From a virus (taxonomy: Duplodnaviria; Caudoviricetes): DNA of 64,000 nucleotides. Location of the stretch: positions 3,472-67,471 of the IMG/VR virus record IMGVR_UViG_2654588115_000002. The stretch is one strand, 5' to 3'. The first letter of the stretch is position 1. Each line of letters opens with the position of its first letter. A model generated the notes under the pieces. That model saw only the letters and a program-made list of their open reading frames with translations. It did not search any database and was not told where the DNA came from. A program made the position numbers and the translations under genes. Shown here in pieces: positions 6,103 to 59,817 of this stretch.

Positions 6103-9100
6103 ATGAAACGGAATTGCCAGCAGAAGCTGAAATATACGAGCCTTGCTGCCATGATTGCCTTTACCCTGTCAACGGGGCTCGTTTATGGTGCAGATATGCC
6201 GGTGGATGGCAAGGTGGTGGCAGGCAAAGTTACCATTGATGGAACGGAATATATTCCTGCCGTGGGGGATAATCCTGCGGTGCTGATTAACCCGCTGACG
6301 GGAAAGACTTTAGTAGTAACAGGCAATAGCGTGATTGACTGGACGACCTTTGATATTGGCAGCGGCAAATCGCTGACTTTTGAAGGGCAGGGCAGCAATT
6401 ATATTCTCAACCGGGTTCCCTGGAATAATGCAGCTTCGGAGATTTATGGCATACTAAATACTCAGAATATACATTTTATACTGGCAAATCCTAATGGCAT
6501 AACTGTGGGGAATGGTGCGCAGCTCAATGTGATTGATGGCGGCAGTATTCTTTTGGCTGCTATGGGGGCTGGTTTCAATAACGCAAACAATAGCATAACT
6601 CTGCAAAACTACAACTACGGCGACAGGTCTTCTATCAACATTGGGGGGATAGAAGCTGTAAATGGCAACGTGGCGTTAATGGCAAAAACCATTAATGTGG
6701 CGGATGGCATTACATTTTCTGGGGATACAGCCCTGAAGTTGTTGGCTGGAAAGACCTCCTATAATCAGTCCATAACGGTTACGCCTGGTGAGGGTGTTGA
6801 TTCTATCGGCAGTAGCGGAAGCATTACATTTAATGGTTCTCTAGTTGATGATAGCCACAAGGTTAATCTGGGAGTGAGTGCGGACTCAATCACGATGTCG
6901 GCAGGTAAGAAAATCGCCCTTACGGGAACGGATTCTGCGGTGAATATCAATACGAGCAGGTTGCAGAATGCCGATATTACGGGCCCTGTAGTTACGTTAG
7001 TCAGGGATGGCGCAATCACTGTCTCTGACAGCAAGCTAACATCCACGGTGGGGGATGTCAAAGTTTTGTCCGGGACTTTGTCAGAGGATGGCAAGACCCT
7101 GAGCAATACTACTGTTACTAATAATAATTATATAGTGAACCACAAGGTGACGATGAACAATTCGTCTGTAATTTCGGCGGATGATGCAATCATTGCGGCT
7201 GCGGCAGTGGATATCAGCGGCAAAAAAGCAGGTGAAAGCGCTGCCATAGCTGCAGTGAACGATGTGTTTATTGCTTCTGGTAAGAATGTGCCATTGCAGA
7301 GCGGCAGTTTGACAACAGATGCGGGGATGAATACCTCTGTCACTGTTAGCAACGCAGAAATTCAGGGGCGCAATCTGACTTTGGCCGGGAATGACGTAAC
7401 CGTTACAAGCAGCAGCGAACTAACGGCAACTAATGATATGCAAATAGTTGCGGCACCTGATATTACCATATCTGGCGGAAAAGTTGTGTCCGGTCAGAAT
7501 AGTACTACTTCTAATGGCGGGGTAGAGATAACGGACTCTGTCTTGCAGGGGAAAAATATCAGCCTGACAGGAATAGCTGTGACTGCAAACGGAACCATTG
7601 GCAATGCAAGCACGGAGAACGTGCACCTGCTGGCAGGTCGTGATTTTAATTTCAGTGCAGACAGTATGACCAGAGGGATGACCGCCAATGTCACAGGCGG
7701 GACTATCACTGGCCATGATATATTGGCAGAAGGCGCAACGGTGGAAGTGGCCAATGGTGCTGCAATCCATGCAGTTAGCGCCGTTGAGAACGAAGAAACG
7801 GTAGCGGGGAAAGTGCGCCTGCTGGCTGGCAGCGGCGTTACAAATGGCGTTGTAACGGCAACTTCCGGCAATAAAGCTACTGTAAAAGGCACGCTTTCCG
7901 GCGGTGATATTGTCGTGGCCGGTGGTGCAGTGGATGTAGATGGCGGTATGGTCAATGCCGGGACGAATTCTGCTTGGCTGCTGGCCGGAAACAGCATAAA
8001 GACGACAGCTGCCATGGGCAGTGCAGATGCTGATGGGGTTATAACCTCGGCTGAAGGCAATGCCGTGACCATAAAGAAGGGGGCAACTGTGTCCGCAGAT
8101 AAGGTGCATATCGCCGGGTACTCCGCTGACCTTAGCAGTGCCACGAATAACAGTAGCATAACTGCGGCAACGGAAATCAATGCCGTTACCGGTTCGACCA
8201 TCAACAATAACGCAGGTACCTTGGTTCGTGAGGCCAATGCTGCCAGAGGGCGTTTCAGCCGTGATACGGCTTCTGTGGTTACGGTTAATGGCAGTGCTTC
8301 TTCGGCCATGATTGATATGCCCACTGATGGCAAAGTTATTTCCGGCAGCGTCAGCTATAAGGGCAACAGTTATGACGCAAGCAGCAATTACTATTTCAAT
8401 CTTGCTTCCGGTGATACCATTATGGCCAATAGCCATAGCATCATCAACTGGAATACCTTCGATATCGGGCTAAGTGGTGTGTTGAACTTTGACACGACAA
8501 ATGGCGCTCTTTTGAACCGCGTCACGGGCAGTTACGCATCCTGGCTGAAGGGTACCCTTAACCATACGGGAACCTATCCCTTGCTGTTGGTGAATCCCCA
8601 GGGCATTCATGTGTATCAGGGGGCAACCATCAATGGTGCCAATCTGATTCTTTCCGGGCTGGATATGACGGATACGGCATTGAGCAATTTTTCGACTGCT
8701 GGTGCGGTGGCCTATGATACTGCCTCCACAGGTGATGTGAATTTAGAGAGTGGCATAACTTTTAGCAATGAAGCTGAGAAGTTAGCTTTGGCAGGCAGGA
8801 ACGTAACGGTTGCCCAGAATACCATAAAGGCAGAGTCATTGAAGGCAGACGCTACAAATACAGCAACTTTGACCAATCTCACCTATACCGGAGCCCTTGA
8901 GGGCAATAGTGTCCTGGATAGCGCTGGGGGAAGTCTGACCCTTTCCGGCGGTAGTTATACGGGGAACACCAACTTGAAAGGCACAACGGTCAATATGGCA
9001 GTCACTTCCCATACTGGTAATGTGACTGTCCAGGGAACCACTGTGGGCATCAATGGCGGGACTTACACCGGTGACCTGACTCTGGCTGGCACGAGTGTCA

Positions 9101-12100
9101 GTGTGAGCGGCGTAGCTTTTGACGGTGAAGATAAGGCTCATAACCTTACCCTGTCCGGCCTTGGCGAAAATGGCGCTGTTACGGTGAGCAATAGCACCGT
9201 TACGGGGGCTGATGATGTTGTCCTTACGGGCAAGACGGTAAATGTCAGCCAGTCGGGAAATACCCGTGCCGATTGGACGGCTGAAACCTTCACCTTGGGG
9301 AAAGGGGAAAGTGCGTCCAATACTACTGGCATAACGAACATCAATCTGACAGTTACCAAGGCGGATACAACGCCCACGGTCGGAAATGATGTGGCCCTTA
9401 CCCTTAACAATGCTGCAATAAGTGCGCCCCAAATCAACCTTACCCCTGCCAGCCTGACCCTTTCTGGCGGCAGCTCGCTTATAAGTGATACCACTGTGGA
9501 TATTGCCGCTGCTGGCAGTGTTACTGTGCAGGGGGGCAGTGAAGTTACAGCTGAAACTGGCGACCTCAATGTTACGGCAGCGGAGGCACTGACGGTGAAA
9601 GGCGGCACCACCCTCGAAGCCAAGACGGGGAATCTCACGGCGAAGGGCGCATCAGTCGCTATAGGCGTGGCAAATGATACGGAAAATACCATCAAAGCCG
9701 ATGCTGGCAATATCACCATTAAGGCTGGCGTAGATGATGGCAGAACGGATGCCAATACAGTCAATATACAGAATACTGACCTGACGGCCAATGCGGCAGG
9801 AAAGAGCATTACTGTGACCGGGTATAGCGTTGATGCTGCCGGGGATTTGCACACGAAGACTGCAAACATGAGCGGCAATAGCGTGAATACTGCCGGTACT
9901 ACTGCGGCCGACACGGTGAATATCACGGGTACTGCCAGTGCGTCTGCTTCGGGAACGATTACGGCTGGTACTGTAAATATGAGCGGTGCTGACAGTGTAT
10001 CTGCTTCCGGCAATATTACTGCGGATACGCTGAATATCACTGGCATCAGCGCGACTGGCAGCCTTACTGTAGGCGGAGTAGTGAATGTAGCTAATGCTCT
10101 GACCTTGCAGGGCGGCAGCAGCGGCGGGGCTGTAATAAACGGCGCAATAACTGCGCCCTCCATCACGATTTCGGCCCAGGATGTCACCTTCAGCGGCGCG
10201 AATGTAACGGCTGCTACTGGTGATGTATCTGTAACTGGTAAGACCATTAGGACGAATGAATCTTATTATACGTCATCTGCTATCAACAGTGAAAATGGTG
10301 ATGTCCTGCTTATTTCCGGTACGAATACTGCGGGGGTTTATACCACCACCGAAGGTGGCAGTATTTCTGCCGACAAGATGAATATTACCGGCAATACCGT
10401 GACGGCTTTGGCCAGGACTACTTCCATCGAAAACGGCACAATCCACGCAGATAACATGCAGATTGCTGCTGCCAATACGGTTAATGGAAGCACCTGGGCG
10501 GCTGGATTTGGCGATACTGACAATCCCAACAACCTTACCCTGACCAATACCACCGTGCTCAGCAAGAACGGTGAGGGCGCTATTGAGAACGTCAAACTGG
10601 CAGGCAGCAATGTGACCTTTGGCGGTGGCGGAACGGATGCCCAGGCCTTCAAGGCAAATTCTTTGGCTGTGGCCAGTGACCAGAGCATCACCGTGGCTTC
10701 CGGCCAGGTTAATGTCACCGGCGCGGAGGGCATTTCTCTCAGCGGCAAATCAATTACCGTAGATGGCACCATCCAAGCAAGGCAGATAAATCTGACGGCT
10801 ACGGAAAATGATGCCACCTTGAATAGTGGTTCTGCCCTGAATACTACGGGTGAAGATGCAACAAATGCCATCAGCATCACAGCAAATAATGGCAATATCA
10901 ATGCCAATGGCAGCCTGACGGCTGATGACAGCATCACTATGAATGCAAAAACAGATATTGCTACAGATGGGACTATCACTGCAGCCACCGTTGGCATGAC
11001 GGCGGAAAATGACATTGGCACAGCAGGGACTATTACGGCTGATTCCGTAAGCCTGGCAGCAGGAAACGATATCAACTCTGCGGCAGATATAACGGCCAGC
11101 ACCATTACTATGGACGGCGGTGACGGGAAAGCAATCAGCGCCACAGGTGCATTGAATGCTGCAGGTGGTACGATTACCCTTGGTCACGCTCCTTCTGATG
11201 AGCCGGCAAAGGCTGGTACGAAAACTGTAACAATCGGGCCTGCAGCGGGAGCAAACAAGGCGGTACAGGCGCAGACTGTCAACGTGCAGGCAACGGACAC
11301 CATTGGCCTGAGCAGGGTCACCATGGAGACAGCCGACAGTCTGAATCTTGCCAGCAAGGAAGTCAGCATCACGGGGAGTTCTGTCACTACTGAGGGCAGT
11401 TTGACTCTTAACGGCACGGAAGATGCAGCGAACCCGTCTGTCAGCATCACGGGCAGCACATTGGCAGGAACAGCTATCAACGCAACCGGCAAGGGAATAA
11501 GCGTCGGCAGTTCCGACCTTACGGCTACGACTGGGGGAATTGCGGTCAATTCCACGGGTGAAAATGATATTGCTGTGACCAACACTGCATTGAAGGCTGA
11601 GCATGCAACGAATGGCAATATCTCCATAAACTCCGGCAAAGCTATTCAGGCTATTGGTGGCAGCATGACAGCAGGGAAGGATATCAGCCTTGCGGCGATT
11701 GCGGCTAAAGGTGGAGAAGATAGCGATGCTGCTTATGCCATCAAGGCATCTGCCAACATGACTGCTGGAAATGACATCGGCCTCACTGCTACTGCAGGTG
11801 AAGTGTATTCTGCTGGCAGTCTCACTGCTACAAGTGGAAGTATCACAATGGACAGCACAGATAGCTCGAAAATCAGCATGACGGGTGATTTGGCTGCGGC
11901 AAGCGGCACGGTCACCCTGGGCCATGCAGATGGAGAGCATAAGACTGGCATTGTCGAAATCAATTCCGGGACAAGCGACAAGGGCATCAAGGCAACTACT
12001 TTGCTGGTCAATGCAACGGAAGAAATCGGCATTCAGTCTGCTGCGATTGATGTGAATAGTGCTTTGCATCTGGGGAGCAAAAAGGTTTCTGTGGCAAGCA

Positions 12101-15100
12101 GCAACATCGCTACGGACGGGGCTCTCACCCTTGCCAGCTCCAATAGTGCAGCCGCTATCACAGGCAGCACCCTGGAAGGCACCAGCGCTACCGTAAGTGG
12201 CAAAGGGATAAGTGTCAGCGATTCCACCATCACGGCTGCGACCGGGGGAATTGGTGTCACTTCTACAGGTGAAAATGATATTACCATATACAGAACGGTA
12301 TTTAACGCCACCAATGAGACCAATGGCAATATTGCTATTGCTTCTGAAAAAGCCGTCCAGGCTACGGGCGGTGAGATGTCTGCAGGGAAGGACATTGTTA
12401 TCACGGCAAGTAACGATAGTGATGCCATTGCGATTAGTACAGCGACTCCCATGTCTGCAGGAGAGAATGTCCGGCTTTTGGCTGACTCAGGCTATGTGTC
12501 TTCATCTGGCAATATGATTGTCGGCAAGAGCATCAAATTGCAGACTGGGGCTGGTGATATCACTTCATTTAGTAACATGCGTATTACCGCTGGAACTGGA
12601 GGAACCATTGATCTGATTAGTGGCAATGGTTCAAAGGTATGGACAAGAGGTGGTTTGTCAGTAGAAAATGGAACCATTAACCTTGGTCGTGCCTCGGCTG
12701 GGGATGTCGCAGGAACGAAGACTGTAGAGATAGACAATAATCATATAAATGCTCAGACATTGTATGCTTGGGCTACGGACAATATTGATTTGAAGGACGC
12801 TGAGGTTAATGTTACTGATGATTTGTCACTGTCCAGCAAAAAAATATTTTCTGCAAATAGTAGAGTTGCTGTAAGTGAAGGTGTAATTACTGTTAACGGT
12901 ACTGAACAGGGAGAAAGCCCGTCTGTAAATATATCAAATAGCAGTTTGAGGGGGACAAGTGTTGCAGTTGCAGGCAAAGGGGTAAGAGGCGAGCTGGCTC
13001 GTTTTTACGCAACTGCAGGTGGAATAGATATTGAGTCTACAGGCGAAAATAAGGTATATTTGGCTAACGGGACAATGGAAGCGACTGATGCAGATAGTGG
13101 CATTATTGATATTGCTTCTGAAGGTGCTATTGAGGTTTGGGGAGGCAGTTACAGTGCTGGCAAGGATATATCCATAGCGGCTGACAACGAGGGTGTCCAG
13201 GTTTATTCAGGTGGTATGGAAAGCAATGGCAGGATTGATATACAGGCTGCGGCTGGAGATATTGCGCTGACTGGACCATATGAAGCTAATGAATATGTGG
13301 TAGCAGCAGAAAAAGGTAATATCAGGTTTAGCATCGGTACCGTTAATGCTTCTTCAATTGAGATGACAGCAGGTTCTGAAGGCAATACGGGAAAGACCAT
13401 TTCCTTGGGAAATGAAGTTAGTATGAACGCCGTAGATAAAGTGGAACTGGTAGCCAGTGAAGGCATTATCAATGCTGCCGGTAATATTGCGGTACAAGAA
13501 GATAATGAAAAATCAGGTGAAGTAGTTTTAACGGCCAATACTGTCTCTTTGGGGGCGGATGATAGCCGGACGGCTAATAACAGAAAAATTTCTACAAAGG
13601 ATTTGACTGTCACGGCATCCGAAGCCATCAATTTGCAGAAGATTAAAATTGAAACGGAAGAGGATTTGTTGCTGGCTTCTGCTGAAACGCAGATAACAGA
13701 CAGCATCCTGACGACTACCGGTGGAAACCTGACGGTAAAATCCACTGGGACGGATATCACCGTGGACAAGAGCACCATCACGGGCAATAGTGTTGCAATC
13801 AATGGCAAGGGAATCCAGGTAGGCCAGGCAGAAATGGAGAATAACAATTCGACCATTACGGCCAATACTGGCGACGTGACCCTTACTACGGATACGAATA
13901 TTGCGGTAAACAATGCGAATATCACAGCAAAAGGCAAGGCAGACCTTGTGGCCGCGACTGGAATTAATGTGGCAGACACCGGTGTTACGGCCACGGATAA
14001 GGGAATCTCCATCGAGTCAACGGCAGCTGATTCTGATGTGACACTGACCAGCGTAACGCTGAACGCAGAAAATGCAACTGCTGGCAATATCACCGTTCAG
14101 ACCGGCAATGCCATTGGTGTTACCGGCGGCAGCATGATTGCGGGTAAGGACATTACCCTTAAAGCAGAGAATGCAGGAATTACTGTGTCTGGTGCTACAT
14201 TCACGACCACAGCAGGAAACGGCGGCAATATTGACTTGCTGGCAGGCAGTGAAGGCACAAATGGTTGGAGCGCAATAGAAAATAACGCACTTGGGCTAAC
14301 CAATATCACCCTTAATGCTGATGGAGCCGTGACTGGAAAGAGCGGTAAGACTGACATCGCAACCAGCAGCATAACTGCGGGCGGCAATGTAAATGTAACT
14401 ACCGTGGGCACTGATGGTGACGCAAGCCATGTCAACGTGGATAAGAGCACCATTGAAGGTGCTGGTGTTGCAATCAGCGGTAAGGGCATCAAGGTGGACC
14501 AGAAGGACGGAATATCTGATAACACTTCGACCATTATGGCCAATACTGGTGACGTGACCTTTACTACGGATACGAATATCGCGGTAAGCAAGGCAACCAT
14601 CACAGCAAAAGGCAAGGCAGACTTTGTGGCCGCGACTGGAATTAATGTGGCAGACACCGGTGTTACGGCCACGGATAAGGGAATCTCCATCACGTCAACG
14701 GCAGCTGATTCTGATGTGACCTTGACCAGCGTAACGCTAAAGGCAGAGAATACTGCTAACGGCAATATCACCGTTCAGACCGGCAATGCCATTGGTGTTA
14801 CCGGCAGCAGCATTACTGCGGGTAAGAATATTACCCTTAAAGCAGAGAATGCAGGAATTACCGTGTCGGATGCTGCTCTTACGACTATAGCAGGAAACGG
14901 CGGTAATATTGACTTGCTGGCAGGCAGTGAAGGCACAAATAGTTGGAGCGCAACAGAGAACAACGCACTTGGGCTTACCAATATCACCCTTAATGCTGCC
15001 GGAGCCGTGACTGGAAAGAGCGGCAAGACTGACATCGCAACCAGCAGTATAACTGCAGGCGGCAATGTAAATGTGACGGCCGTGGGAACTGATGGTGACG

Positions 15101-18100
15101 CAAGCCATGTCAACGTAGATAAGAGCACCATTGCAGGTGCTGGTGTTGCAATCAGCGGCAAGGGCATCAAGGTAGACAAGAAAGAAGGAATATCCGAGAA
15201 CACTTCGACCATTACGGCCAATACTGGCGACGTGGCGCTTACTACGGATACGGATATCGCAGTAAGCAAGGCAACCATTACTGCGAAAGGCAAAGCAGAC
15301 CTTGTGGCCGTGAATGGAATTGATGTGGCAGATACCAGTGTTGCGGCCACGGATAAGGGAATCGCTATCACGTCAACGGCAGCGGATTCTGATGTGACCC
15401 TGTCCAGCGTAACGCTAAAGGCAGAGAACACTGCTAATGGCAATATCACCGTTCAGACTGGCAATGCCATTGGTGTTACCGGCAGCAGCATGACTGCGGG
15501 TAAGAACATTACCCTTAAAGCAGAGAATGCAGGAATTACCGTCGCTAGTGTTGCCCTTACGACCAAAGCAGGAAACGGCGGCAATATTGACTTGCTGGCA
15601 GGCAGTGTGGATGGTACTGGTTGGAGTGCAACGGAAAACAATGCACTTGGGCTTACCAATGTTACTCTTAGTGGCGCCGGAGCCGTGACTGGAAAGAGCG
15701 GCAAGACTGATATCGCAACCAGCAGCATAACTGCGGGTGGCAATGTAAATGTGACGGCCGTGGGAACTGATGGTGACGCAAGCCATGTCAACGTGGATAA
15801 GAGCACCATTGCAGGGGCTGGTGTTGCAATCAGCGGCAAGGGCATCAAGGTAGACCAGGCAGAAATGGAGAATAACAATTCGACCATTACGGCTAATACT
15901 GGTGATGTGACCCTTACTACGGATACGAATATCGCGGTAAACAATGCGAATATCACAGCAAAAGGCAAGGCAGACCTTGTGGCCGCGACTGGAATTAATG
16001 TGGCAAACACCAGTGTTACGGCCACGGATAAGGGAATTACTATTATTTCCACAAGTGACGGCAAGGATTTAATTCTGACGAATACCACTTTGTCTGCAAC
16101 GAATGCCACTAATGGCAGCATTACTGTCAGGGCAAAAAATGCGGTCAATACCAAGGGGAGTAGTCTGACTGCAGGCGATGGACTTACCATTAACGCAGAA
16201 AATGCCGCCAATGAGCTGGAAAGCAGCACTTTGCAGGGCAAGAATGTCAACATTAGCGGCGTTGGCATTACCGTGAGCAAGAGCGAAGGAACTGGAGCAG
16301 CAGCCCCGTCTGTAACCGCAACGGCTGGAAATGTGGCACTTAATTCTACTGCTGGAATTGGCGTAAGTGATGCAAGCATCACTGCAAACACCGGTGGAAT
16401 TTCTGTCATCTCTACGGATGCAAATTCTGATGTAACCTTGACGAATGCTGCTATGACAGCTGGTGCAGCCATAGAAATCAATTCTGGCAAAGCGCTCAAT
16501 GTCAGCGAAGGCAGCATGACTGCTGACAATAATATTGGACTTGTGGCAGCATCTGCCGTTGAAGTAGGGAACAGCAAGCTCCAGGGCAAGAACGTCTCAA
16601 TCAGCGGCAAGGGCATAACGATAAGTGATGATGATGCAGCTACTCCGACCATCAAGGCAACAGCAGGAGGCGTAACCCTGACATCAACAGGTGACGGTAA
16701 TGATGTAACGCTGACGAACATTACAGTGGGAGCAAATGGAGATATTGCAATCAATGCAGCAGATGCCATCACTACCAAGGGGAGCGATCTGACTGCAGGC
16801 AATGACTTTACCATTGGCGCAGGAACGGGCACCAATAAATTTGAAAGCAGCACTTTGCAGGGCAAGAATGTCAACATTAGCGGCGTTGGCATTACCGTGA
16901 GCAAGAGCGAAGAAAATGGAGCAGCAGCCCCGTCTGTAACTGCAACTGCTGGAAGTGTAGCACTTAATTCTACTGCCGGAATTGGCGTAAGTGATGCAAG
17001 CATTACTGCGACCAACGACATAGGAATTGAGGCAGTGACTGCTGTAGGATTCGAGAATAATAAGCTCCAAGGCAAGAACGTCTCAATCAGCGGCAAGGGC
17101 ATAACGGTAAGTGACAATGATGCAGTTACTCCGACCATCAAGGCAACAGCAGGAGGCGTAACCCTGACGTCCACGGGTGACGGCAATGATGTAACCCTGA
17201 CTGGTGCCACTTTGAAAGCGGATAACACTACCAGCGGCAATATCACCATCACTTCTGCCAGGGCTATCGAAGCCACTGGCGGCTCCATGACTGCTGGCGA
17301 GAATATTAACCTTGCGGCAACCTCTTCTGATGGTACCGCTGGTGCCAAGGCTGTCAATAGCAGCAGTGATATGACTGCCGGTGGGAATGTCCGCGTTGCT
17401 TCTGTGTCGGGGGATGTCGTATCTTCCGGTAATGTTGCAGCTGCCAATATCACTATTGACGGTGATAATGTCAGTGCAACGGGCAGTCTTGATGCCGAGA
17501 ATGGCACTATCACTCTGGGGCATGCAGAAGGTACTGGCAATGTGGTGATTGGTGAGGCAGCAGATGCGGCTAAAGTCGTGAAGGCAGCTAACCTGAATGT
17601 CCATGCAACGGATTCTATTGCCACCAGAAATGCTAACATCGCAGTGGCCAATAATGTTGCTTTGGCAAGTGAGGCTATCAGCCTGGATGGCACTGCCTTG
17701 ACCACAGGGGGCAGCCTGGATATCAAGGGCGACACCATTGCAATAAACGCCAGCACCCTCAGAACGACGAATACTTCTAATGGTCATATCAACCTGCTGG
17801 CAGGAAATGCTGATGGAGCTGACTGGTCAGCTGGGGATGGGAACACCCTTGCTTTGACCAATACGGATGTTTCTGCTGCCGGGGATGTAAGTTTCCGGGC
17901 AGGGCAGATTACAATCAATGCAGATGCAGAAAATGCACCGGTCAAGGAAATCCGCGGCAATAACCTCTTGCTGGCAGCGGCTAAGAGCTATGATGCTGAA
18001 AACCATGAGTACACCATGGAAAGCGGACAGACGATAAGTGTCACCAATACCAACCTTACGGGCAGTGATTCCATTACCTTGCTTGGTTATAAGACCAATA

Positions 18101-20943
18101 TCAAGGGCGATGTTATCAGCAAACGCCTGCTGGGTGCAGTGGGCGAGTCTGTTACCATGAATGAGGACGGTTCAGATGTAGACGATTATATCTATACGCA
18201 GGAAGAGGGGGCTAATGTACTTACTGTTGATGGTGCTGTGGCTACCAGCGACGAATCTGACCTCATTTACATCAAGCTGTATGGTGATGCAAAATTCCTC
18301 AACAAGAATGATACTCTGCAAACCATGTCCTTTATTGCAAACTCACCTTATAGCCTGGCTATTTCCGGCGATATGACGGTAACGGCTGAATCCGGTATCC
18401 GGCTGGCGAGTGAATCTATCCAGATACAGGATAACTTGTGGGCCAATAATCCAAATGCTTCGATTGAATTGGCCAGTGCTGGCGGCGAAATGAATATTTC
18501 CGGCAATTTGCGGGCAGGCAAGGATGTTATCTTGAAGAGTGCCCAGAATATTGTCATCGGTACGGATGATAAGACCGTTTCAGTAACTGCCGATAATGGC
18601 AGTGTGAAACTGCTGGCTGGCAATTTTGATGGCCGCTATGGTGCACAAGGTGAATGGGTAAGTGCCAATCCTGTGATTAACGGCATAGATCTGACCAATA
18701 CGGCCATAGCTGCTGGTGAAAATATCATCGTAAAAGGTGGCGCGGTTAATTTCACGGGTGTTAATGAACTGGCTGGCGATGCTTCTGTTTTGGCGGGGAA
18801 TGCGGTACTCAGCGGTACGGTCAGTGGTGGTGAAAACACACTGACCATGACTGCGGATAATATCGTGGTCGAAAGCGGTACGCTACTGACTATGCACGAA
18901 TTTGCAACGCGGCAGGGCAATTTCACCTTGGAGTCTGCGGCACAGATAACGGCTGATGAAACAGACTTGCAGGGTGAAACTATCAGCCTGGCCAATAATT
19001 CCCTGGTGGTTAGTGATGCAGTCAAGGTAAAGGCAGAGAATGCTGAATTGGCTGGCCTCATCTATACGGATAAGCTGACCGCTAAAGCCGATAATACGCT
19101 GACGGTGACGGAGACTGTGAAAAATAAGGCTGGCACAGATGATACGATTGTCGAACTGGAAGGCCGTAACGTGACCTTTGTTGGCAGCAGCTTTAAGACG
19201 CTGACGGTTAAAGGCACGGAGAGCATCACGCTGGATGAGGGAGACTTGTACGGCGAGGATGACATTGCCCTGACTACCAAAAATCTGACGGTAGCGACCA
19301 ATATTACCACCACAAATGGCGATATTAATCTTACGGGTACAGAGAATCTTCGGGTAACAGGCAGTTTGACGGCTGGTCAGCAGATTGGCCTCAATGGCAA
19401 GAATATACAGCTTAGTGGTGCGAAACTTAATAATGGTGCAAATGCCAAAACTACCGTTGCTGGTGAAAGCGCAGTTATCACCGGAACGATTACTACGGAC
19501 ACGGGGGCTGATTTGTCGGTTAAGGCACAGAATGTAATAGTGGGTGACTCTGGTATTACCAACATTGCCGTGAGTAAGTTTACGGTTGAAGGTGTGGAAC
19601 AGGCTAAGTTTATCAACACAAACTTCCAGGCGGATACTACGGTGAAAGGTAAGGCCGCAGTCTTGACCGGCAATATTGATGCCACGGGTTATGAACTGAC
19701 CCTGCAGTCAACGAATGTAACCATCGGCGATGGCCAGACGGCTACCGTAATGACCGCGAAATCCCTGGCTGACGCGGATAATCTTACCATTGACCAGGCG
19801 GTTCTGAACCTTGATTCCTACAAGCTGCAGGCAGGTAAGGCTATTACCCTGAAGAATGAGGTAACTGCTGAAGGGCAGGCTTTGGAACTGGCAGCACCTG
19901 ATGCCAGCATTGGCGATGGTTCAGCCAATACGGTCATTAAGGCAGGTTCCGTATCGGCCACGGACAAACTGCTGGTGGATAAGGCGGTGCTCGCTGTAAA
20001 TGATGGTACTTTGCAGGCCCAGCAGATTATCCTGCGAGGGAATGTAACTGCAGATAATCTTGACTTGACTTTGCAGGCACCTGAGGCGGCTATCGGTGAT
20101 GGCATTGTTGATACCGTGATTACGGCCCGTTCTGTAATGGGAACGGAGGATTTGCTCATCGACAAAGCCAGCTTCGCGGTCACGAATCCTATAATTGCAA
20201 CTGCAGGGAATCTCACCTTGCAACATGAGATTGTGGCGGGAGATACGGTTGGCTTCCAGGCAGGAAAAGCTATTACCATGCAGGATATGTCCATGGATAA
20301 GTCCACGGATGTCAGCTTTGAAGGCAAGCTCATTGATATGCGCGACAGTTCTATCAATGCCGGGAAGGACGGAAAACTATTCTTCGCTGCCTATAGCGTT
20401 AAGACTGAATCGCCATTGAGCTATGCCTTCCAACCGGATAATGAAGTCATCATTGACAATTCACGTCTGGATGCTGGTGAGATGACCATGCTGGGGTATT
20501 CCATTATTGCCCGGAATGGCTCTGAGATTTACGCAGACAAGACACTGGATGCTTTGGCGGCTAAAAAAGTTGCTATGGGCAAGCTGGGAAATCTGGAAAT
20601 AGTCTCGCAGGCAACCCTGAGCACTGAGCCGCAGAATAAGCTCTTGCAACAGGATGCGATTATTGAGGTTGGCGGCAGGGCTTATCATAACTTCCGCTTT
20701 ATCCCTGCTTCGGCGTACCAGTCAGATACCATTATGCGCTATCTGGAATCTGTGAATGATATGACCTGGCAGATAGGTTTCAATAGTTCGCCATTGTCGA
20801 TTATCGGGATTCCTGGTCTTAGCTTGTATCGTTTCCAGTATCGAGATGGAATATCCGAGGCAATTTCAGGACTGGAGATGTATTTTACAGTGGACTCCCA
20901 TGAAGGAGAGGAGAGAGAAGAAAAGGAAAAGACAAATGGGTGA
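6103..20943 (+). CDS. TpsA filamentous-haemagglutinin-like adhesin (4946 aa)
   Basis: Signal peptide; TPS domain 'IDWTTFDIG...ILNRV...LANPNGITVG'; very long G/A/T/N/S-rich beta-helical repeats. Confidence 0.92.
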   Translation: MKRNCQQKLKYTSLAAMIAFTLSTGLVYGADMPVDGKVVAGKVTIDGTEYIPAVGDNPAVLINPLTGKTLVVTGNSVIDWTTFDIGSGKSLTFEGQGSNYILNRVPWNNAASEIYGILNTQNIHFILANPNGITVGNGAQLNVIDGGSILLAAMGAGFNNANNSITLQNYNYGDRSSINIGGIEAVNGNVALMAKTINVADGITFSGDTALKLLAGKTSYNQSITVTPGEGVDSIGSSGSITFNGSLVDDSHKVNLGVSADSITMSAGKKIALTGTDSAVNINTSRLQNADITGPVVTLVRDGAITVSDSKLTSTVGDVKVLSGTLSEDGKTLSNTTVTNNNYIVNHKVTMNNSSVISADDAIIAAAAVDISGKKAGESAAIAAVNDVFIASGKNVPLQSGSLTTDAGMNTSVTVSNAEIQGRNLTLAGNDVTVTSSSELTATNDMQIVAAPDITISGGKVVSGQNSTTSNGGVEITDSVLQGKNISLTGIAVTANGTIGNASTENVHLLAGRDFNFSADSMTRGMTANVTGGTITGHDILAEGATVEVANGAAIHAVSAVENEETVAGKVRLLAGSGVTNGVVTATSGNKATVKGTLSGGDIVVAGGAVDVDGGMVNAGTNSAWLLAGNSIKTTAAMGSADADGVITSAEGNAVTIKKGATVSADKVHIAGYSADLSSATNNSSITAATEINAVTGSTINNNAGTLVREANAARGRFSRDTASVVTVNGSASSAMIDMPTDGKVISGSVSYKGNSYDASSNYYFNLASGDTIMANSHSIINWNTFDIGLSGVLNFDTTNGALLNRVTGSYASWLKGTLNHTGTYPLLLVNPQGIHVYQGATINGANLILSGLDMTDTALSNFSTAGAVAYDTASTGDVNLESGITFSNEAEKLALAGRNVTVAQNTIKAESLKADATNTATLTNLTYTGALEGNSVLDSAGGSLTLSGGSYTGNTNLKGTTVNMAVTSHTGNVTVQGTTVGINGGTYTGDLTLAGTSVSVSGVAFDGEDKAHNLTLSGLGENGAVTVSNSTVTGADDVVLTGKTVNVSQSGNTRADWTAETFTLGKGESASNTTGITNINLTVTKADTTPTVGNDVALTLNNAAISAPQINLTPASLTLSGGSSLISDTTVDIAAAGSVTVQGGSEVTAETGDLNVTAAEALTVKGGTTLEAKTGNLTAKGASVAIGVANDTENTIKADAGNITIKAGVDDGRTDANTVNIQNTDLTANAAGKSITVTGYSVDAAGDLHTKTANMSGNSVNTAGTTAADTVNITGTASASASGTITAGTVNMSGADSVSASGNITADTLNITGISATGSLTVGGVVNVANALTLQGGSSGGAVINGAITAPSITISAQDVTFSGANVTAATGDVSVTGKTIRTNESYYTSSAINSENGDVLLISGTNTAGVYTTTEGGSISADKMNITGNTVTALARTTSIENGTIHADNMQIAAANTVNGSTWAAGFGDTDNPNNLTLTNTTVLSKNGEGAIENVKLAGSNVTFGGGGTDAQAFKANSLAVASDQSITVASGQVNVTGAEGISLSGKSITVDGTIQARQINLTATENDATLNSGSALNTTGEDATNAISITANNGNINANGSLTADDSITMNAKTDIATDGTITAATVGMTAENDIGTAGTITADSVSLAAGNDINSAADITASTITMDGGDGKAISATGALNAAGGTITLGHAPSDEPAKAGTKTVTIGPAAGANKAVQAQTVNVQATDTIGLSRVTMETADSLNLASKEVSITGSSVTTEGSLTLNGTEDAANPSVSITGSTLAGTAINATGKGISVGSSDLTATTGGIAVNSTGENDIAVTNTALKAEHATNGNISINSGKAIQAIGGSMTAGKDISLAAIAAKGGEDSDAAYAIKASANMTAGNDIGLTATAGEVYSAGSLTATSGSITMDSTDSSKISMTGDLAAASGTVTLGHADGEHKTGIVEINSGTSDKGIKATTLLVNATEEIGIQSAAIDVNSALHLGSKKVSVASSNIATDGALTLASSNSAAAITGSTLEGTSATVSGKGISVSDSTITAATGGIGVTSTGENDITIYRTVFNATNETNGNIAIASEKAVQATGGEMSAGKDIVITASNDSDAIAISTATPMSAGENVRLLADSGYVSSSGNMIVGKSIKLQTGAGDITSFSNMRITAGTGGTIDLISGNGSKVWTRGGLSVENGTINLGRASAGDVAGTKTVEIDNNHINAQTLYAWATDNIDLKDAEVNVTDDLSLSSKKIFSANSRVAVSEGVITVNGTEQGESPSVNISNSSLRGTSVAVAGKGVRGELARFYATAGGIDIESTGENKVYLANGTMEATDADSGIIDIASEGAIEVWGGSYSAGKDISIAADNEGVQVYSGGMESNGRIDIQAAAGDIALTGPYEANEYVVAAEKGNIRFSIGTVNASSIEMTAGSEGNTGKTISLGNEVSMNAVDKVELVASEGIINAAGNIAVQEDNEKSGEVVLTANTVSLGADDSRTANNRKISTKDLTVTASEAINLQKIKIETEEDLLLASAETQITDSILTTTGGNLTVKSTGTDITVDKSTITGNSVAINGKGIQVGQAEMENNNSTITANTGDVTLTTDTNIAVNNANITAKGKADLVAATGINVADTGVTATDKGISIESTAADSDVTLTSVTLNAENATAGNITVQTGNAIGVTGGSMIAGKDITLKAENAGITVSGATFTTTAGNGGNIDLLAGSEGTNGWSAIENNALGLTNITLNADGAVTGKSGKTDIATSSITAGGNVNVTTVGTDGDASHVNVDKSTIEGAGVAISGKGIKVDQKDGISDNTSTIMANTGDVTFTTDTNIAVSKATITAKGKADFVAATGINVADTGVTATDKGISITSTAADSDVTLTSVTLKAENTANGNITVQTGNAIGVTGSSITAGKNITLKAENAGITVSDAALTTIAGNGGNIDLLAGSEGTNSWSATENNALGLTNITLNAAGAVTGKSGKTDIATSSITAGGNVNVTAVGTDGDASHVNVDKSTIAGAGVAISGKGIKVDKKEGISENTSTITANTGDVALTTDTDIAVSKATITAKGKADLVAVNGIDVADTSVAATDKGIAITSTAADSDVTLSSVTLKAENTANGNITVQTGNAIGVTGSSMTAGKNITLKAENAGITVASVALTTKAGNGGNIDLLAGSVDGTGWSATENNALGLTNVTLSGAGAVTGKSGKTDIATSSITAGGNVNVTAVGTDGDASHVNVDKSTIAGAGVAISGKGIKVDQAEMENNNSTITANTGDVTLTTDTNIAVNNANITAKGKADLVAATGINVANTSVTATDKGITIISTSDGKDLILTNTTLSATNATNGSITVRAKNAVNTKGSSLTAGDGLTINAENAANELESSTLQGKNVNISGVGITVSKSEGTGAAAPSVTATAGNVALNSTAGIGVSDASITANTGGISVISTDANSDVTLTNAAMTAGAAIEINSGKALNVSEGSMTADNNIGLVAASAVEVGNSKLQGKNVSISGKGITISDDDAATPTIKATAGGVTLTSTGDGNDVTLTNITVGANGDIAINAADAITTKGSDLTAGNDFTIGAGTGTNKFESSTLQGKNVNISGVGITVSKSEENGAAAPSVTATAGSVALNSTAGIGVSDASITATNDIGIEAVTAVGFENNKLQGKNVSISGKGITVSDNDAVTPTIKATAGGVTLTSTGDGNDVTLTGATLKADNTTSGNITITSARAIEATGGSMTAGENINLAATSSDGTAGAKAVNSSSDMTAGGNVRVASVSGDVVSSGNVAAANITIDGDNVSATGSLDAENGTITLGHAEGTGNVVIGEAADAAKVVKAANLNVHATDSIATRNANIAVANNVALASEAISLDGTALTTGGSLDIKGDTIAINASTLRTTNTSNGHINLLAGNADGADWSAGDGNTLALTNTDVSAAGDVSFRAGQITINADAENAPVKEIRGNNLLLAAAKSYDAENHEYTMESGQTISVTNTNLTGSDSITLLGYKTNIKGDVISKRLLGAVGESVTMNEDGSDVDDYIYTQEEGANVLTVDGAVATSDESDLIYIKLYGDAKFLNKNDTLQTMSFIANSPYSLAISGDMTVTAESGIRLASESIQIQDNLWANNPNASIELASAGGEMNISGNLRAGKDVILKSAQNIVIGTDDKTVSVTADNGSVKLLAGNFDGRYGAQGEWVSANPVINGIDLTNTAIAAGENIIVKGGAVNFTGVNELAGDASVLAGNAVLSGTVSGGENTLTMTADNIVVESGTLLTMHEFATRQGNFTLESAAQITADETDLQGETISLANNSLVVSDAVKVKAENAELAGLIYTDKLTAKADNTLTVTETVKNKAGTDDTIVELEGRNVTFVGSSFKTLTVKGTESITLDEGDLYGEDDIALTTKNLTVATNITTTNGDINLTGTENLRVTGSLTAGQQIGLNGKNIQLSGAKLNNGANAKTTVAGESAVITGTITTDTGADLSVKAQNVIVGDSGITNIAVSKFTVEGVEQAKFINTNFQADTTVKGKAAVLTGNIDATGYELTLQSTNVTIGDGQTATVMTAKSLADADNLTIDQAVLNLDSYKLQAGKAITLKNEVTAEGQALELAAPDASIGDGSANTVIKAGSVSATDKLLVDKAVLAVNDGTLQAQQIILRGNVTADNLDLTLQAPEAAIGDGIVDTVITARSVMGTEDLLIDKASFAVTNPIIATAGNLTLQHEIVAGDTVGFQAGKAITMQDMSMDKSTDVSFEGKLIDMRDSSINAGKDGKLFFAAYSVKTESPLSYAFQPDNEVIIDNSRLDAGEMTMLGYSIIARNGSEIYADKTLDALAAKKVAMGKLGNLEIVSQATLSTEPQNKLLQQDAIIEVGGRAYHNFRFIPASAYQSDTIMRYLESVNDMTWQIGFNSSPLSIIGIPGLSLYRFQYRDGISEAISGLEMYFTVDSHEGEEREEKEKTNG
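13760..16040 (+). repeat. about 3.4 tandem copies of a 675-678 nt (225-226 aa) unit inside TpsA
   Basis: Marker GCCGCGACTGGAATTAATGTGGCA and a variant recur at 13951, 14629, 15307 and 15982. Confidence 0.9.
16150..17200 (+). repeat. second duplicated block inside TpsA (first part offset 624 nt)
   Basis: TTGCAGGGCAAGAATGTCAACATTAGCGGCGTTGGCATTACCGTGAGCAAGAGCGAAG occurs at 16231 and 16855; GGCAAGAACGTCTCAATCAGCGGCAAGGGCATAACG also occurs twice. Confidence 0.85.
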
Positions 20944-20967
20944 GTATGCTGCACAAATAGCTCTATA

Positions 20968-21014
20968 AAAGAAGCTGTGGCAATGTGTGATACCATTTTG
21001 TCACAGCTTCTTTT
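20968..21014 (+). terminator. intrinsic terminator after tpsA (possibly bidirectional)
   Basis: AAAGAAGCTGTGGCAA / TTGTCACAGCTTCTTT stem with A- and T-runs. Confidence 0.8.
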
Positions 21015-21432
21015 ATATGTGCATTTTTAGGCTTGAGTATGAGTAAAACATCGAAGATAAAAAAGCTCATTAGTAGCAAGAGGCGGAAAATCGAGCAGTA
21101 TTATTGATTGGTAGAGTTTAATATGATTACAAGATATATAACGATATTGTCTTGTAACAGTGTAACATAAAATTAGAAAATTATTAAAAGAATATTGACT
21201 TTATAATAGAGAGTGATATTATAAAACATGGCACAACAAGATGAAATGAGAACTAGTTGTGGATAAATATTTGTGTATCAATGTTATTTTTCATGCTTAT
21301 GGAATTGGTTCCAAAGGGCCATATCATCCATGTTATAGGGATGATATGGGTTCGATAATATAAAAGCATTGTAGTTTGTACTAACAATCGAATATAGTAT
21401 CAAAAATACTTGGTGTGCTGTTCATTTTATGA

Positions 21433-21489
21433 AGAAGCCGGAGTAGACAAATGACACTTTAGGTGTCGTAGTCTTCTCCGGCTTTTTTT
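21433..21489 (+). terminator. long hairpin terminator
   Basis: AGAAGCCGGAG..GACAC / GTGTC..CTCCGGCTTTTTTT. Confidence 0.7.
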
Positions 21490-21510
21490 CTTAGACAAAC
21501 AAAATATCGA

Positions 21511-21703
21511 GCCTGAGTTGCAATAGGGCAAAGGATATTCTTATAGACTGAAATTGATTTTATGAAATCGGTTTCAGTCATTCGGAGTACCCTCTCCTTA
21601 TTGCGCCCGTTTTGCTTGAGTACATTTTGGTCTGTGGACTTCGAAAGGTTCACAGGCCTTTTTTCTGTGTCCTTTGCCCAGCTTCAGGGGAAAGGACAGA
21701 ATC
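21511..21703 (+). promoter_or_regulatory. structured 5' leader (terminator hairpin plus anti-SD switch) of the sigma-like gene
   Basis: Hairpins at 21546-21579 and 21629-21658 (+T-run); TGTCCTTTGCCC 21668-21679 is complementary to both 21526-21537 and the SD region 21687-21698. Confidence 0.6.
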
Positions 21704-22183
21704 ATGAAAATCACAATGTACTACGAGGATAAGAACCATCCTACCATCCTGGATGTCCCGGATGAGGAATGCTCTGTAATGGTGGAGACGGATTACCAGC
21801 AGAGACTGGCAGAGGCTGAAGACAAATATAAGGTCAGCAGGCGTACCGTTCAGGAAATTATGGATGAGGATTTCAGCAAGCCCACATTCAATCGGAATCA
21901 TGCAGAGACGCGCCGTCATGTTTTGCTGTCTGCCTATGATCCTGAGGGGCAGTCTGTTGAGGGAATGCCGGATATTCAGTCCGAGTTGTTGGATAAAGAT
22001 GAATATGCAGATTTATACCATGCCATACAAAAGCTGCGCCCCAGGCAGAGAGAGCTTCTGCGCAAGGTGTTTTGGGAGGAAATTCGACAGACGGATATTG
22101 CCAAAGAAGAGGGCGTGGGAAAATCTGCTATCAGCCAGAGGCTGACCACCATCTGTAATCGGTTGAGAAAATTTCTGTCCTGA
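21704..22183 (+). CDS. phage sigma-70 region-4-like transcription factor
   Basis: C-terminal 'AIQKLRPRQRELLRKVFWEEIRQTDIAKEEGVGKSAISQRL' HTH; AAAGGA RBS. Confidence 0.8.
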   Translation: MKITMYYEDKNHPTILDVPDEECSVMVETDYQQRLAEAEDKYKVSRRTVQEIMDEDFSKPTFNRNHAETRRHVLLSAYDPEGQSVEGMPDIQSELLDKDEYADLYHAIQKLRPRQRELLRKVFWEEIRQTDIAKEEGVGKSAISQRLTTICNRLRKFLS

Positions 22184-22200
22184 AAAAATTTATTTTAGAT

Positions 22201-22238
22201 AAAACCTAAACTTTCCCTGTTTTGGTGGGCTACCTATG
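22201..22238 (+). promoter_or_regulatory. bipartite motif, copy 1 (putative phage-sigma promoter)
   Basis: AAAACCTAAACTTT-N11-TGGGCTACCTATG, repeated at 53290-53327. Confidence 0.6.
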
Positions 22239-22279
22239 AAGGGACAAACAATAACAACCCTTCGGAAAGGAAATATGCG

Positions 22280-22492
22280 ATGAAGCATACATTAAACATC
22301 AAGGTATCCAAGGAAAAGGACAATGGTGGCATCATGACCTGCCGTCAGTTGACTGTGAGGGAGCGTCTGTTGCGTTTTCTCATGGGAAGTCCGGTAAAGC
22401 TGACGGTCATTGTGCCGGGAGATTCCGTGGATGAGGTTGCGATTATTGAAAACGGAAGGGGGAAATCCTATGCCAGCAAGACCACTGTATGA
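22280..22492 (+). CDS. conserved phage hypothetical protein
   Basis: AAGGA RBS; 'LTVIVPGDSVDEVAI' motif; first gene of the replication operon. Confidence 0.7.
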   Translation: MKHTLNIKVSKEKDNGGIMTCRQLTVRERLLRFLMGSPVKLTVIVPGDSVDEVAIIENGRGKSYASKTTV

Positions 22493-33717: not shown

Positions 33718-33946
33718 GGAAAAACTGGAATACTTGCGGAGCTTTTATGCACGGGGACGGATTGTGGTGCTTGGGGAAATGAAAGATGCCCAGGCACCGC
33801 CTCCGGGCACCTATGGCGAAATCCAGGGAGTAGATGATGCGGGCAATATTCTGGTTCGCTGGGACAACGGTTCCTGCCTGAGTCTCATTCTGGATGTGGA
33901 TACCTTCTTCATCGTAAAACACCGCCCAGAAGACATAGGAAAATAA
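33701..33946 (+). CDS. DUF4314-like small phage protein
   Basis: 'MKDAQAPPPGTYG...VDDAGNILVRWDNGSCLSL'; AAGGAGG RBS. Confidence 0.75.
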   Translation: MKLPSKEKLEYLRSFYARGRIVVLGEMKDAQAPPPGTYGEIQGVDDAGNILVRWDNGSCLSLILDVDTFFIVKHRPEDIGK

Positions 33947-33953
33947 TCAGTAA

Positions 33954-34058
33954 GTATACACAGAAATTATTCCTAATTTGCTTGCTATAAATCGTGGTTA
34001 GAGCGAATATACACATACCAAAAGGGAACAACCTAGACAAGCAAAGGAGGAAAAACAA
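33954..34058 (+). promoter_or_regulatory. cassette leader, copy B
   Basis: GTATACACA-CTTGCTATAA-TTAGAGCGAATATACACATACC-CAAGCAAAGGAGG. Confidence 0.8.
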
Positions 34059-34496: not shown

Positions 34497-34540
34497 AAAC
34501 TACGCAAAATGCCCAAGGGAGCCGCAAGGCTCCTTTTGAT

Positions 34541-34643
34541 GTATACACAGAATTAATCCGAAATTCGCTTGCTATAATTTGCGTTTAGAGCGAACATACA
34601 CATACCGAAAGAGAACATCGAGCAAGCAAAGGAGGATGCAACC
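34541..34643 (+). promoter_or_regulatory. cassette leader, copy C
   Basis: GTATACACA-CTTGCTATAAT-TTAGAGCGAACATACACATACCGAAAG-GAGCAAGCAAAGGAGG. Confidence 0.8.
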
Positions 34644-34868: not shown

Positions 34869-34914
34869 GACCGGCATTAAAGCCAGCAGCCCTTCGGGGC
34901 TGTTTCTTGTTGAA

Positions 34915-35016
34915 GTATACACAAAATTTATCCGAAAATCACTTGCTATAATTCGCGATTAGAGCGAATATACACATACCGAAAGGAACACCGAGCAAGC
35001 GAAGGAGGAAAAGAAA
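34915..35016 (+). promoter_or_regulatory. cassette leader, copy D
   Basis: GTATACACA-CTTGCTATAAT-TTAGAGCGAATATACACATACCGAAAGG-GAGCAAGCGAAGGAGG. Confidence 0.8.
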
Positions 35017-36846: not shown

Positions 36847-36852
36847 GCGATT

Positions 36853-36958
36853 GTATACACAAATAACATCGAATTATGACTTGCTATTTCCTCCATAAAG
36901 AGCGAATATACACATACCGAAAGGGAAAACACAGACGACCGAAAAGGAGGAAAACAAA
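36853..36958 (+). promoter_or_regulatory. cassette leader, copy E
   Basis: GTATACACA-CTTGCTAT-AGAGCGAATATACACATACCGAAAGG-AAAGGAGG. Confidence 0.8.
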
Positions 36959-53248: not shown

Positions 53249-53287
53249 TGCCCACTGCAGATTTTCTGTGGTGGGCATTTTTTTTTT
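53249..53287 (+). terminator. late-operon terminator
   Basis: TGCCCACTGCAG / CTGTGGTGGGCA plus long T-run. Confidence 0.85.
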
Positions 53288-53289
53288 GA

Positions 53290-53327
53290 AAAACCTAAAC
53301 TTTTGTCATTTTCATGGGCTACCTATG
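53290..53327 (+). promoter_or_regulatory. bipartite motif, copy 2 (putative phage-sigma promoter)
   Basis: 31 of 38 positions identical to 22201-22238, no gaps. Confidence 0.6.
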
Positions 53328-53690: not shown

Positions 53691-53726
53691 GTGATATATA
53701 GTATCAAACGTAAATGGGGTGAGACA

Positions 53727-57418: not shown

Positions 57419-57438
57419 GAAGCCAGGAGGTGACAACC

Positions 57439-59465: not shown

Positions 59466-59817
59466 GTGTGTAGAGGCTAGGCCATACGTTTTTCATAGGG
59501 GGATATAGTTAGAGGTATGGGGGAACGACCATGATTGACAAGCTTGTTTGAGTTGACAAGGTATATCCATACAACTCTATCGGGGCATGTCGAATGTGTG
59601 ACGTTGCTACAACGGAAAAAATCGTGAAACTCTTTGGCATGCGGGAGAATACGCCAGAGGAAATGCTGCGGCGAATACAGTGAACGCTGACCAATCGCAG
59701 CTACTGTCCTTCCTGGAAAACGTGCTCAAGAAGCCATAAGATAAGGTATACGTTTCGAGTAGCTTGGAAATATACAAAAAATGAGGATGTGGACAAATGA
59801 TGTTCACATCCTCTTAC

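Follow-up and report, generated by a model that had tools for sequence, protein, structure and literature searches.

The 64,000-nucleotide (nt) stretch analyzed here, the window, comes from an IMG/VR provirus record and contains a temperate siphovirus-type prophage. On its plus strand, the first early gene (21704–22183, start ATG at 21704–21706) encodes a 159-residue protein with a sigma-70 region 4 domain, and is preceded by a leader (~21507–21703) delimited by folding and comparison. An earlier note on this sequence had proposed that the leader is a mutually exclusive folding switch. Our comparison of relatives suggests that it probably is a conserved two-state riboregulator of six segments, in which an attenuator and a translation switch act on the same early gene.

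The leader begins with a 5′ strand (21507–21545), which carries one strand of a basal helix, a conserved GCCUGAG (21511–21517), a self-complementary hexamer, TTGCAA (21518–21523), recognized from leader comparison, and element A (21526–21538, segment 1), a Shine–Dalgarno look-alike. An apical hairpin, P2, follows (21546–21579), with 15 pairs between 21546–21560 and 21565–21579. Next comes 3′ strand 1 (21580–21619, segment 2), made up of A′ and a basal helix strand; it includes TATTGC (21599–21604) and, at 21581–21592, the 5′ half of a putative antiterminator. The intrinsic terminator T (21629–21664, segments 3 and 4) has a stem of 13 pairs (21629–21641 with 21646–21658), a loop of 4 (21642–21645) and then six Us (21659–21664). 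Within T lies the 3′ half of the antiterminator, with its core at 21638–21645 and weaker pairs reaching back to ~21629. Beyond T are element B (21667–21679, segment 5), the anti-Shine–Dalgarno strand; a linker (21681–21688); and element C (21687–21698, segment 6), which contains the Shine–Dalgarno region GGAAAGGA (21689–21696), nearly invariant across the family. All of these elements are on the plus strand.

The strings and pairings quoted in the earlier note are all present, among them the 15-pair hairpin and the terminator. Segment B (21668–21679) pairs with C at 11 of 12 positions, the exception being a G·G mismatch at 21676/21690, and with A (21526–21537) at all 12, through 11 Watson–Crick pairs and one U·G. 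GCAATA (21520–21525) and TATTGC form six pairs out of six. On the plus strand of the window, the 10-base core of B occurs solely at 21670, and its reverse complement occurs at 21526 (exact) and 21687 (one mismatch). The region 21500–21720 folds at −83.8 kcal/mol, compared with −52.6 ± 4.6 for 200 dinucleotide shuffles (z −6.73), none of which equaled it. The minimum-energy fold consists of a long rod (21507–21619) containing A paired with A′, the terminator, and a B:C hairpin covering the Shine–Dalgarno site. We refer to this fold as OFF. In the alternative fold, ON, A pairs with B and A′ with the 5′ arm and loop of T. There the linker pairs with 21512–21521 of the 5′ strand, lengthening the A:B helix; when ON is forced in the window, the GCCUGAG side (21512–21517) pairs with 21683–21688.

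Relatives were collected through the regulated protein and its locus. Homologues numbered 179 cluster representatives at E ≤ 0.001, out of 203 candidates, and two of them carry source names, Schwartzia and Pseudoramibacter. Scans of viral contigs, genomes and metagenome contigs yielded 5, 3, 21 and 56 loci; the 3 from genome contigs, for which a single protein served as query, were all from Lactobacillaceae. In a phage collection, the DNA of 21190–22190 had no match, and the protein hit five records at <60% identity, four annotated 'hypothetical protein' and one unannotated. Upstream regions sorted into three groups: the main family, a second subfamily of other sequence, and a Lactobacillaceae type. 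A terminator-like hairpin and a Shine–Dalgarno hairpin are present in all three, despite unrelated leader sequences. The main family comprises 47 distinct leaders in 23 clusters at 93% identity, each with one representative. A covariance model of the OFF fold (R1) detected a full-length leader directly upstream of a homologous gene in 49 of 61 sources, at 60–161 bits; two further matches at 16 bits were discarded. This search added one leader (locus L028; loci are numbered in this way below), giving 24 non-redundant leaders (alignment A5), which single linkage at 70% identity placed in 14 clusters.

Across the family, the 5′ domain is one long hairpin in 23 of 23 representatives, built from the basal helix (consensus GCCUGA with UCAGGC), the A:A′ helix and a freely varying P2. 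The sequence and length of P2 differ among relatives, and a hairpin is always kept; in L002, whose protein is 86% identical, P2 has been swapped for an unrelated perfect hairpin while the remaining leader is nearly unchanged. In 21 of 24 representatives, the 8 bases that follow the final G-C pair of T include at least five Us. Element C has the nearly invariant consensus GGCGGAAAGGACA. The hexamer right after GCCUGAG is perfectly self-complementary in 48 of 49 leaders, and self-complementary via G·U in the exception. Six variants occur (TTGCAA, TGGCCA, TGCGCA, TAGCTA, TACGTA and GGTCGACC). Neither the OFF nor the ON fold needs this hexamer, which may be an RNA dimerization site or a protein site.

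The two sets of pairings co-vary. When partners were taken from other sequences, duplex energy weakened from −23.8 to −16.4 for A:B, from −17.7 to −13.1 for A:A′, and from −17.4 to −16.0 for B:C; thus B tracks A more tightly than C. The A:B partners are GGGCAAAGGAUA and UGUCCUUUGCCC in the window, GGGCGGCGGGAAC and GUUCCUGCCGCCC in L012, CAAAGACGGAAAG and CUUUCCGUCUUUG in L026, and AAAGGCGGUGGAUACA and UGUGUCCGCCGCCUUU in L033. In every representative, the bases immediately 5′ of a conserved GUACC in A′ can pair with the loop of T and the distal part of its 5′ arm, and the variable bases of both antiterminator halves change together: UUCGGAGU with ACUUCGAA in the window, AUAGAAGUACC with GGUACUUCUA in L022, GAGAUAC with GUAUCUC in L028, and AUGCGU with ACGCAU in L030. 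The earlier note had placed its switch at the levels of both transcription and translation. Alternatives at both levels were indeed found, the antiterminator formed by A′ with the 5′ arm and loop of T being a component that it had not seen.

From a plain MAFFT alignment, RNAalifold retrieved the terminator and no other helix, as the remaining helices are shifted in register from cluster to cluster; hence covariance models and an alignment-free permutation test were used. On A5, which was fitted to the OFF structure and so leans towards it, 73.3% of cells were paired under that structure, versus 65.3% when shuffled and 39–48% when slid, and both sides had changed in 129 cells versus 64 shuffled. 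Compensatory pairs were seen at 11 of 12 positions in T, 11 of 16 in the rod and 3 of 13 in B:C. On alignment A7 (model R2), fitted to and likewise leaning towards the ON structure, the corresponding values were 66.5% paired versus 57.1% shuffled and 37–48% slid, with both sides changed in 135 cells versus 69; compensatory pairs made up 12 of 16 in A:B and 6 of 9 in the antiterminator. Counting A:B columns on the OFF-fitted alignment was dropped, since inspection placed the registers two columns apart between clusters.

Given the lean of both alignments, we added the alignment-free test, in which one sequence was taken per cluster (14 clusters), partners were deranged between clusters, and mean duplex energies were compared. 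True partners paired better than deranged ones in the rod (−30.2 versus −22.4, z −7.5), A:B (−22.8 versus −15.5, z −8.8), T (−15.0 versus −9.1, z −7.7), and the 5′ end with the linker (z −4.1), with 0 of ~7,300 derangements as low in each case. The antiterminator behaved alike (−13.1 versus −10.1, z −4.6; 0 of 7,389). The terminator arm with B gave z −2.6 (32 of 7,363 as low). Control pairings were not significant: A with the 3′ arm of T (z −0.1), A′ with C (−0.2), and 3′ strand 1 with C (+0.4). Other candidate pairings were rejected, as true partners did no better than swapped ones for the 5′ strand, P2 or linker with the terminator arms, or for A′ with C. G·U pairs were more frequent on the plus than on the minus strand in A:B (24 versus 5), T (22 versus 4), the antiterminator (15 versus 2) and the rod (50 versus 26); B:C showed no bias (14 versus 17). 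The plus-strand bias argues for selection on RNA rather than on DNA palindromes or operators. The comparison shows that four helices, namely the rod, A:B, the antiterminator and T, exist, are mutually exclusive and evolve under RNA-level selection. The earlier note held that its switch would fall if the pairings were not conserved in homologues; the exclusive pairings are conserved and co-vary, with B tracking A across the 14 clusters.

The OFF and ON states are close in energy. Among the 23 representatives, the forced-ON (A:B) fold was less stable than OFF by a mean of 3.9 kcal/mol (range −10.7 to +14.9), and ON was the lower-energy state in 6. The Shine–Dalgarno site was paired in 21 of 23 minimum-energy folds. 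In forced-ON folds it was fully unpaired in 18 of 23, and the other 5 had 2 of 5 positions paired.

These pairings suggest a two-state model with the segment logic 1:2 (rod), 2:3 (antiterminator) and 3:4 (terminator), plus an exchange of 1:5 (A:B) against 5:6 (B:C). In the OFF state, predicted to form first during transcription, A would pair with A′ in a rod of ~110 nt; the rod would act as an anti-antiterminator, and T would then form. In read-through RNA of this state, B would pair with C and hide the Shine–Dalgarno. In the ON state, A′, free of A, would pair with the 5′ arm and loop of T as an antiterminator, and polymerase would pass T. The freed 5′ strand would then pair with B and the linker after it, in a long-range A:B helix that leaves the Shine–Dalgarno single-stranded. 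Because both exchanges share the 5′ strand, its availability would set read-through and translation together. We infer both the order of folding and actual switching in cells from sequence. A might be kept off A′ by a protein, an RNA, a small ligand or a second leader molecule; our guess is that the trigger is a factor binding the conserved 5′ strand or 3′ strand 1. The leader may gate prophage induction, as the earlier note supposed.

Several points weigh against this model, beyond the lean of A5 and A7 towards the structures counted on them. Only 66–73% of cells pair, which reflects differing column registers between clusters, and the 14 clusters were treated as independent though they are metagenome relatives. 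B:C co-varies little, as C hardly varies: in the permutation test it reached z −2.3, with 94 of 7,287 derangements as low, and 3 of its 13 pairs show compensatory change. The U-rich tail after T is missing in 3 of 24 representatives. The rod is far more stable than the antiterminator (−30 versus −13 kcal/mol), so unaided RNA should sit OFF, and either the 5′ strand or 3′ strand 1 has to be engaged by some factor as the RNA is synthesized; these energies come from nearest-neighbor models without kinetics. No effector was found among the possibilities looked for (a leader open reading frame (ORF), an antisense promoter, an upstream RNA and a second copy of B). Lastly, among four relatives scanned for consensus promoters, only L013 has one just upstream of the leader, and the sole promoter-like match in the window (21195–21222) lies upstream of another terminator-like hairpin, T1.

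The search for a trigger covered the leader and its surroundings. By eye, there is no conserved leader ORF; the only ATG of the window leader is in the apical region, which is variable in sequence and length. The minus strand yielded no antisense promoter. Upstream RNA (21229–21485) was rejected as a trans partner, its duplex energies with the leader being no better than those of shuffles, as was a trans-acting RNA carrying a second plus-strand copy of B, of which the 64-kb window has none. The promoter-like site is of the sigma-70 type (TTGACT-16-TATTAT, with TG before the −10; plus strand), matches the consensus at 10 of 12 positions and is conserved in L002. In relatives, inspection by eye shows A/T-rich hexamers that resemble a −10 box and stop a few bases short of the conserved GCCUGA. 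T1 (21432–21489, plus strand), seen in sequence and fold, carries a U-run; it is nearly identical in L002, and other relatives, such as L013, have a different terminator in its place. The unit 21195–21489 as a whole consists of the strong putative promoter, ~250 nt without a convincing ORF and a long terminator hairpin, and is kept in L002 and L014 (with a 54-nt deletion there). It may encode a small RNA; complementarity to the leader was not seen.

Rfam 15 gave 0 matches at gathering scores in the whole window. With E up to 10, cmscan over 20900–22300 returned 23 matches far below gathering, mostly to microRNA models, and no bacterial leader family over 21507–21703; at either setting, therefore, the check that had been proposed for this leader found no known family. 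No transfer RNA or transfer-messenger RNA was found in the window. The leader was not found described in the literature searched, including the portion of PMC5737381 consulted, whose motif lists sit in supplements where it may be listed. The motifs of PMC5737381 should be in Rfam, so the Rfam result bears on them too. Thus, the leader is absent from Rfam and was not found described. What is undescribed, as far as we found, is the coupling via one 5′ strand, the phage early-gene context and the leader sequence family; the parts are of known kinds.

Those kinds can be recognized individually. A G+C-rich hairpin and U-run upstream of a gene, with an alternative helix that uses the terminator 5′ arm, are the marks of an intrinsic-terminator attenuator, and the leader has both. 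In pyr/PyrR attenuators of Firmicutes, the 5′ half of the antiterminator is sequestered in a 5′ hairpin, and the antiterminator itself overlaps the 5′ arm of the terminator. The window leader has the same 1:2, 2:3 and 3:4 segments, but neither a PyrR-like binding loop nor any known effector turned up in it, and its 5′ strand drives a second exchange (1:5 versus 5:6) on the Shine–Dalgarno of the same gene. In the add adenine riboswitch, the 3′ strand of the closing helix doubles as an anti-Shine–Dalgarno, and the 5′ strand has a decoy partner, which sets up an equilibrium among several states. The leader shares both features; unlike add, it has no recognized aptamer or known ligand, and its closing helix encloses a terminator. 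Finally, the rep leaders of plasmids pT181 and pIP501 use antisense-driven attenuation with four segments, in which occupation of segment 1 picks the downstream helix. Occupation of segment 1 would decide between downstream helices here too. The differences are that the minus strand of the window revealed no antisense promoter and that blocking segment 1 should favor read-through, the opposite polarity.

The closest phage parallels are IsrK and the P4 immunity leader (seqA, the CI RNA with seqB, and seqC). Each is a phage leader RNA that contains an internal terminator, has a read-through RNA with a translationally inactive and an active fold, carries repeated complementary boxes on the two sides of the terminator, and controls a key lytic regulator. 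In the window leader, complementary boxes also flank the internal terminator: A, on the 5′ side of T, is complementary to B on the 3′ side, and C resembles A. There are differences. IsrK and P4 are proteobacterial and their Rfam models had no match here, whereas the homologues of the window leader's gene are named from Schwartzia and Pseudoramibacter; they work via a trans-acting short or processed RNA, a mode of action that is hypothetical for the window leader; and the window leader adds a classical antiterminator overlapping the terminator.

This resemblance raises the possibility, which we consider rather unlikely, that the leader acts on itself: most transcripts would stop at T, and the resulting stable RNA of ~160 nt would act in trans on rare read-through RNAs or nascent leaders, through its 5′ strand with B or through the hexamers of two leaders, so that translation and read-through would open only when the leader is abundant. 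In IsrK of the Salmonella prophage Gifsy-1, the short terminated form activates translation of its own read-through isoform, according to PMC4825925. The terminator inside the leader would supply such a short RNA; its 5′ strand is complementary to B beyond T, so terminated RNA could open read-through RNA; and the self-complementary hexamer, retained in 48 of 49 leaders through six variants, is what pairing of two copies would require. Yet the rod of the short RNA buries both the 5′ strand and the hexamer, within-molecule pairing should outrun two-molecule pairing, and the Rfam P4 and P1 RNA models had no match. Such an activity would be compatible with the two-state model in cis.

An unlikely alternative is that nothing is decided at the leader. 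The terminator and Shine–Dalgarno hairpin would merely damp read-through or leaky transcription into the lytic operon, and A:B would be the mature fold of the few full-length messenger RNAs, serving, for example, stability or RNase III processing. Insulation would be useful in L013, where a same-strand gene ends shortly before the leader, and the window has two terminators in series; the energetic dominance of the rod over the antiterminator also fits. Against this, a fixed block has no need for an antiterminator that co-varies with the terminator arm and loop, nor for close ON and OFF energies, and induction demands expression of the early operon, for which the block would have to be lifted.

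It is improbable that the leader is instead a ligand-sensing riboswitch, in which a host metabolite or signal stabilizes the ON fold (P2, the antiterminator and a long conserved single strand, all enclosed by the A:B helix) and the prophage reads cell physiology directly. The design resembles translational ON riboswitches in that the closing helix contributes its 3′ strand as the anti-Shine–Dalgarno strand; moreover, the ON fold leaves the most conserved bases (consensus UGCGCCCAUUUUCAGGC) unpaired, and the two states are near-isoenergetic. However, no known riboswitch aptamer class was matched in Rfam, base conservation is at least partly due to rod pairing with the conserved 5′ strand, P2 is hypervariable, and the leader showed no sign of a compact junction of several helices with invariant unpaired bases. 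A new class is still conceivable. Least probable is that a DNA-binding protein, such as the repressor or the region-4 protein, recognizes A, C, B and A′ as operator half-sites, with covariation reflecting differing operator specificities: B and C do form an inverted repeat over the ribosome site with A as a third copy, the hexamer palindromes resemble protein sites and L012-type relatives have a separate palindrome upstream, but the G·U strand bias, the unequal helix lengths with bulges, and an apical hairpin and terminator that behave as RNA hairpins all speak against it.

The gene under this control was called sigma-like in the earlier note, which holds for its C-terminus only. Residues 107–156 match Pfam Sigma70_r4 (E 1.2e-9), whereas residues 1–66 have no Pfam or NCBIfam match and no sigma region 2; of the two regions looked for in the sigma-70 family, the protein thus has region 4 and lacks region 2. 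In a fold search of the PDB with a predicted model, region-4 chains superpose over 53–74 columns (root-mean-square deviation 1.9–6.4 Å), residues 1–66 would form a β-hairpin and helices, and whole-chain TM-scores against sigma factors are only 0.32–0.38. The protein matches PHROG 11138, of unknown function; it may be the master regulator that the note took it for. It is followed by a 70-residue protein (22280–22492, PHROG 7234, unknown function) in 17 of 23 main-family and 9 of 11 other-leader loci. This small protein is 60–97% identical across all leader types, better conserved than the region-4 gene, and may be a partner of the region-4 protein. Downstream genes encode Gp157, AAA_24, a helicase, a primase/AAA_25 protein, RusA, a methylase, terminase and portal.

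The earlier note also remarked that the prophage has no repressor gene at this end. That is literally true, but an ImmR/ImmA-like module lies at the far end, after the serine recombinase genes: an HTH_3 (ImmR-like) gene (57430–57753, plus strand) and an M78 peptidase/Fic (ImmA-like) gene (57746–59107, plus strand), in which the peptidase is fused to a Fic/DOC domain. In L013, an M78 peptidase gene on the same strand is directly upstream of the leader, ending shortly before it. This gene order suggests that a circular phage genome would place the immunity module just before the leader. The module at the other end and the M78 gene in L013 together suggest that the RNA would be an added layer rather than a substitute for a repressor. 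One serine recombinase gene is intact (53691–55268), and a second large one appears split into two ORFs (55690–56331, Resolvase; 56389–57264, Recombinase plus zinc ribbon). A direct repeat (21392–21417 and 53696–53721) was rejected as attachment-site remnants, since its flanks fail to align.

Several repeats and neighboring features were also observed. In other-leader loci, the same layout recurs at ~150 nt before the gene (L019, L020, L052, L062, L067, L078) or at ~200 nt (L003, L005); there, a 5′ box pairs with a box beyond the terminator-like hairpin, a second box copy lies inside the Shine–Dalgarno hairpin, and the Shine–Dalgarno site is sequestered. A 51-nt element (AAAACCTAAACTTT ... GGGCTACCTATG) occurs twice, 76% identical, just after the region-4 gene (22188–22238) and just before the recombinase/immunity block (53277–53327); L026 and L029 have a similar AAACCTAAA ahead of the leader. 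This element may be a promoter that serves a phage-encoded factor. Four copies of an 81-nt repeat (33944–34024, 34531–34611, 34905–34985 and 36843–36923), 64–88% identical to the reference copy, each have a TATAAT-like box and end in ...ACACATACCGAAAG, followed by a strong ribosome site (AAGGAGGA) and ATG; they look like promoter/leader units ahead of packaging genes. Directly upstream of the left prophage end is a highly repetitive ORF of 4,946 residues (6103–20943), with repeats that by eye resemble those of a surface adhesin, and to the right of the prophage are three copies of a 19-nt palindromic repeat, CGATGTTAATTATTAACAT (59817–59835, 62231–62249 and 62988–63006).

If the two-state model holds, read-through and ribosome access would be coupled by one 5′ strand, an unusually complete design, and the leader would also be a compact building block for synthetic gene regulation. 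With strong co-variation, no Rfam entry and no known effector, it is a candidate for finding a new RNA-binding factor or ligand. Two further forms of the idea we hold to be doubtful: that the leader is an RNA-only switch sensing its own abundance, or that it belongs to a new riboswitch class. In the former, terminated leaders would pair with nascent copies via the hexamer and the A and B boxes, and read-through and translation of the regulator would begin only above a threshold of transcription from the de-repressed promoter; in the latter, a gut or rumen prophage would read a host metabolite before commitment to lysis. The regulated-gene family is present in many gut and rumen metagenomes (179 protein clusters, with 49 leaders among the loci collected). 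For temperate phages of gut and rumen Firmicutes, current knowledge of the lysis decision mainly concerns repressor proteins, and this leader would add a conserved RNA layer to it.

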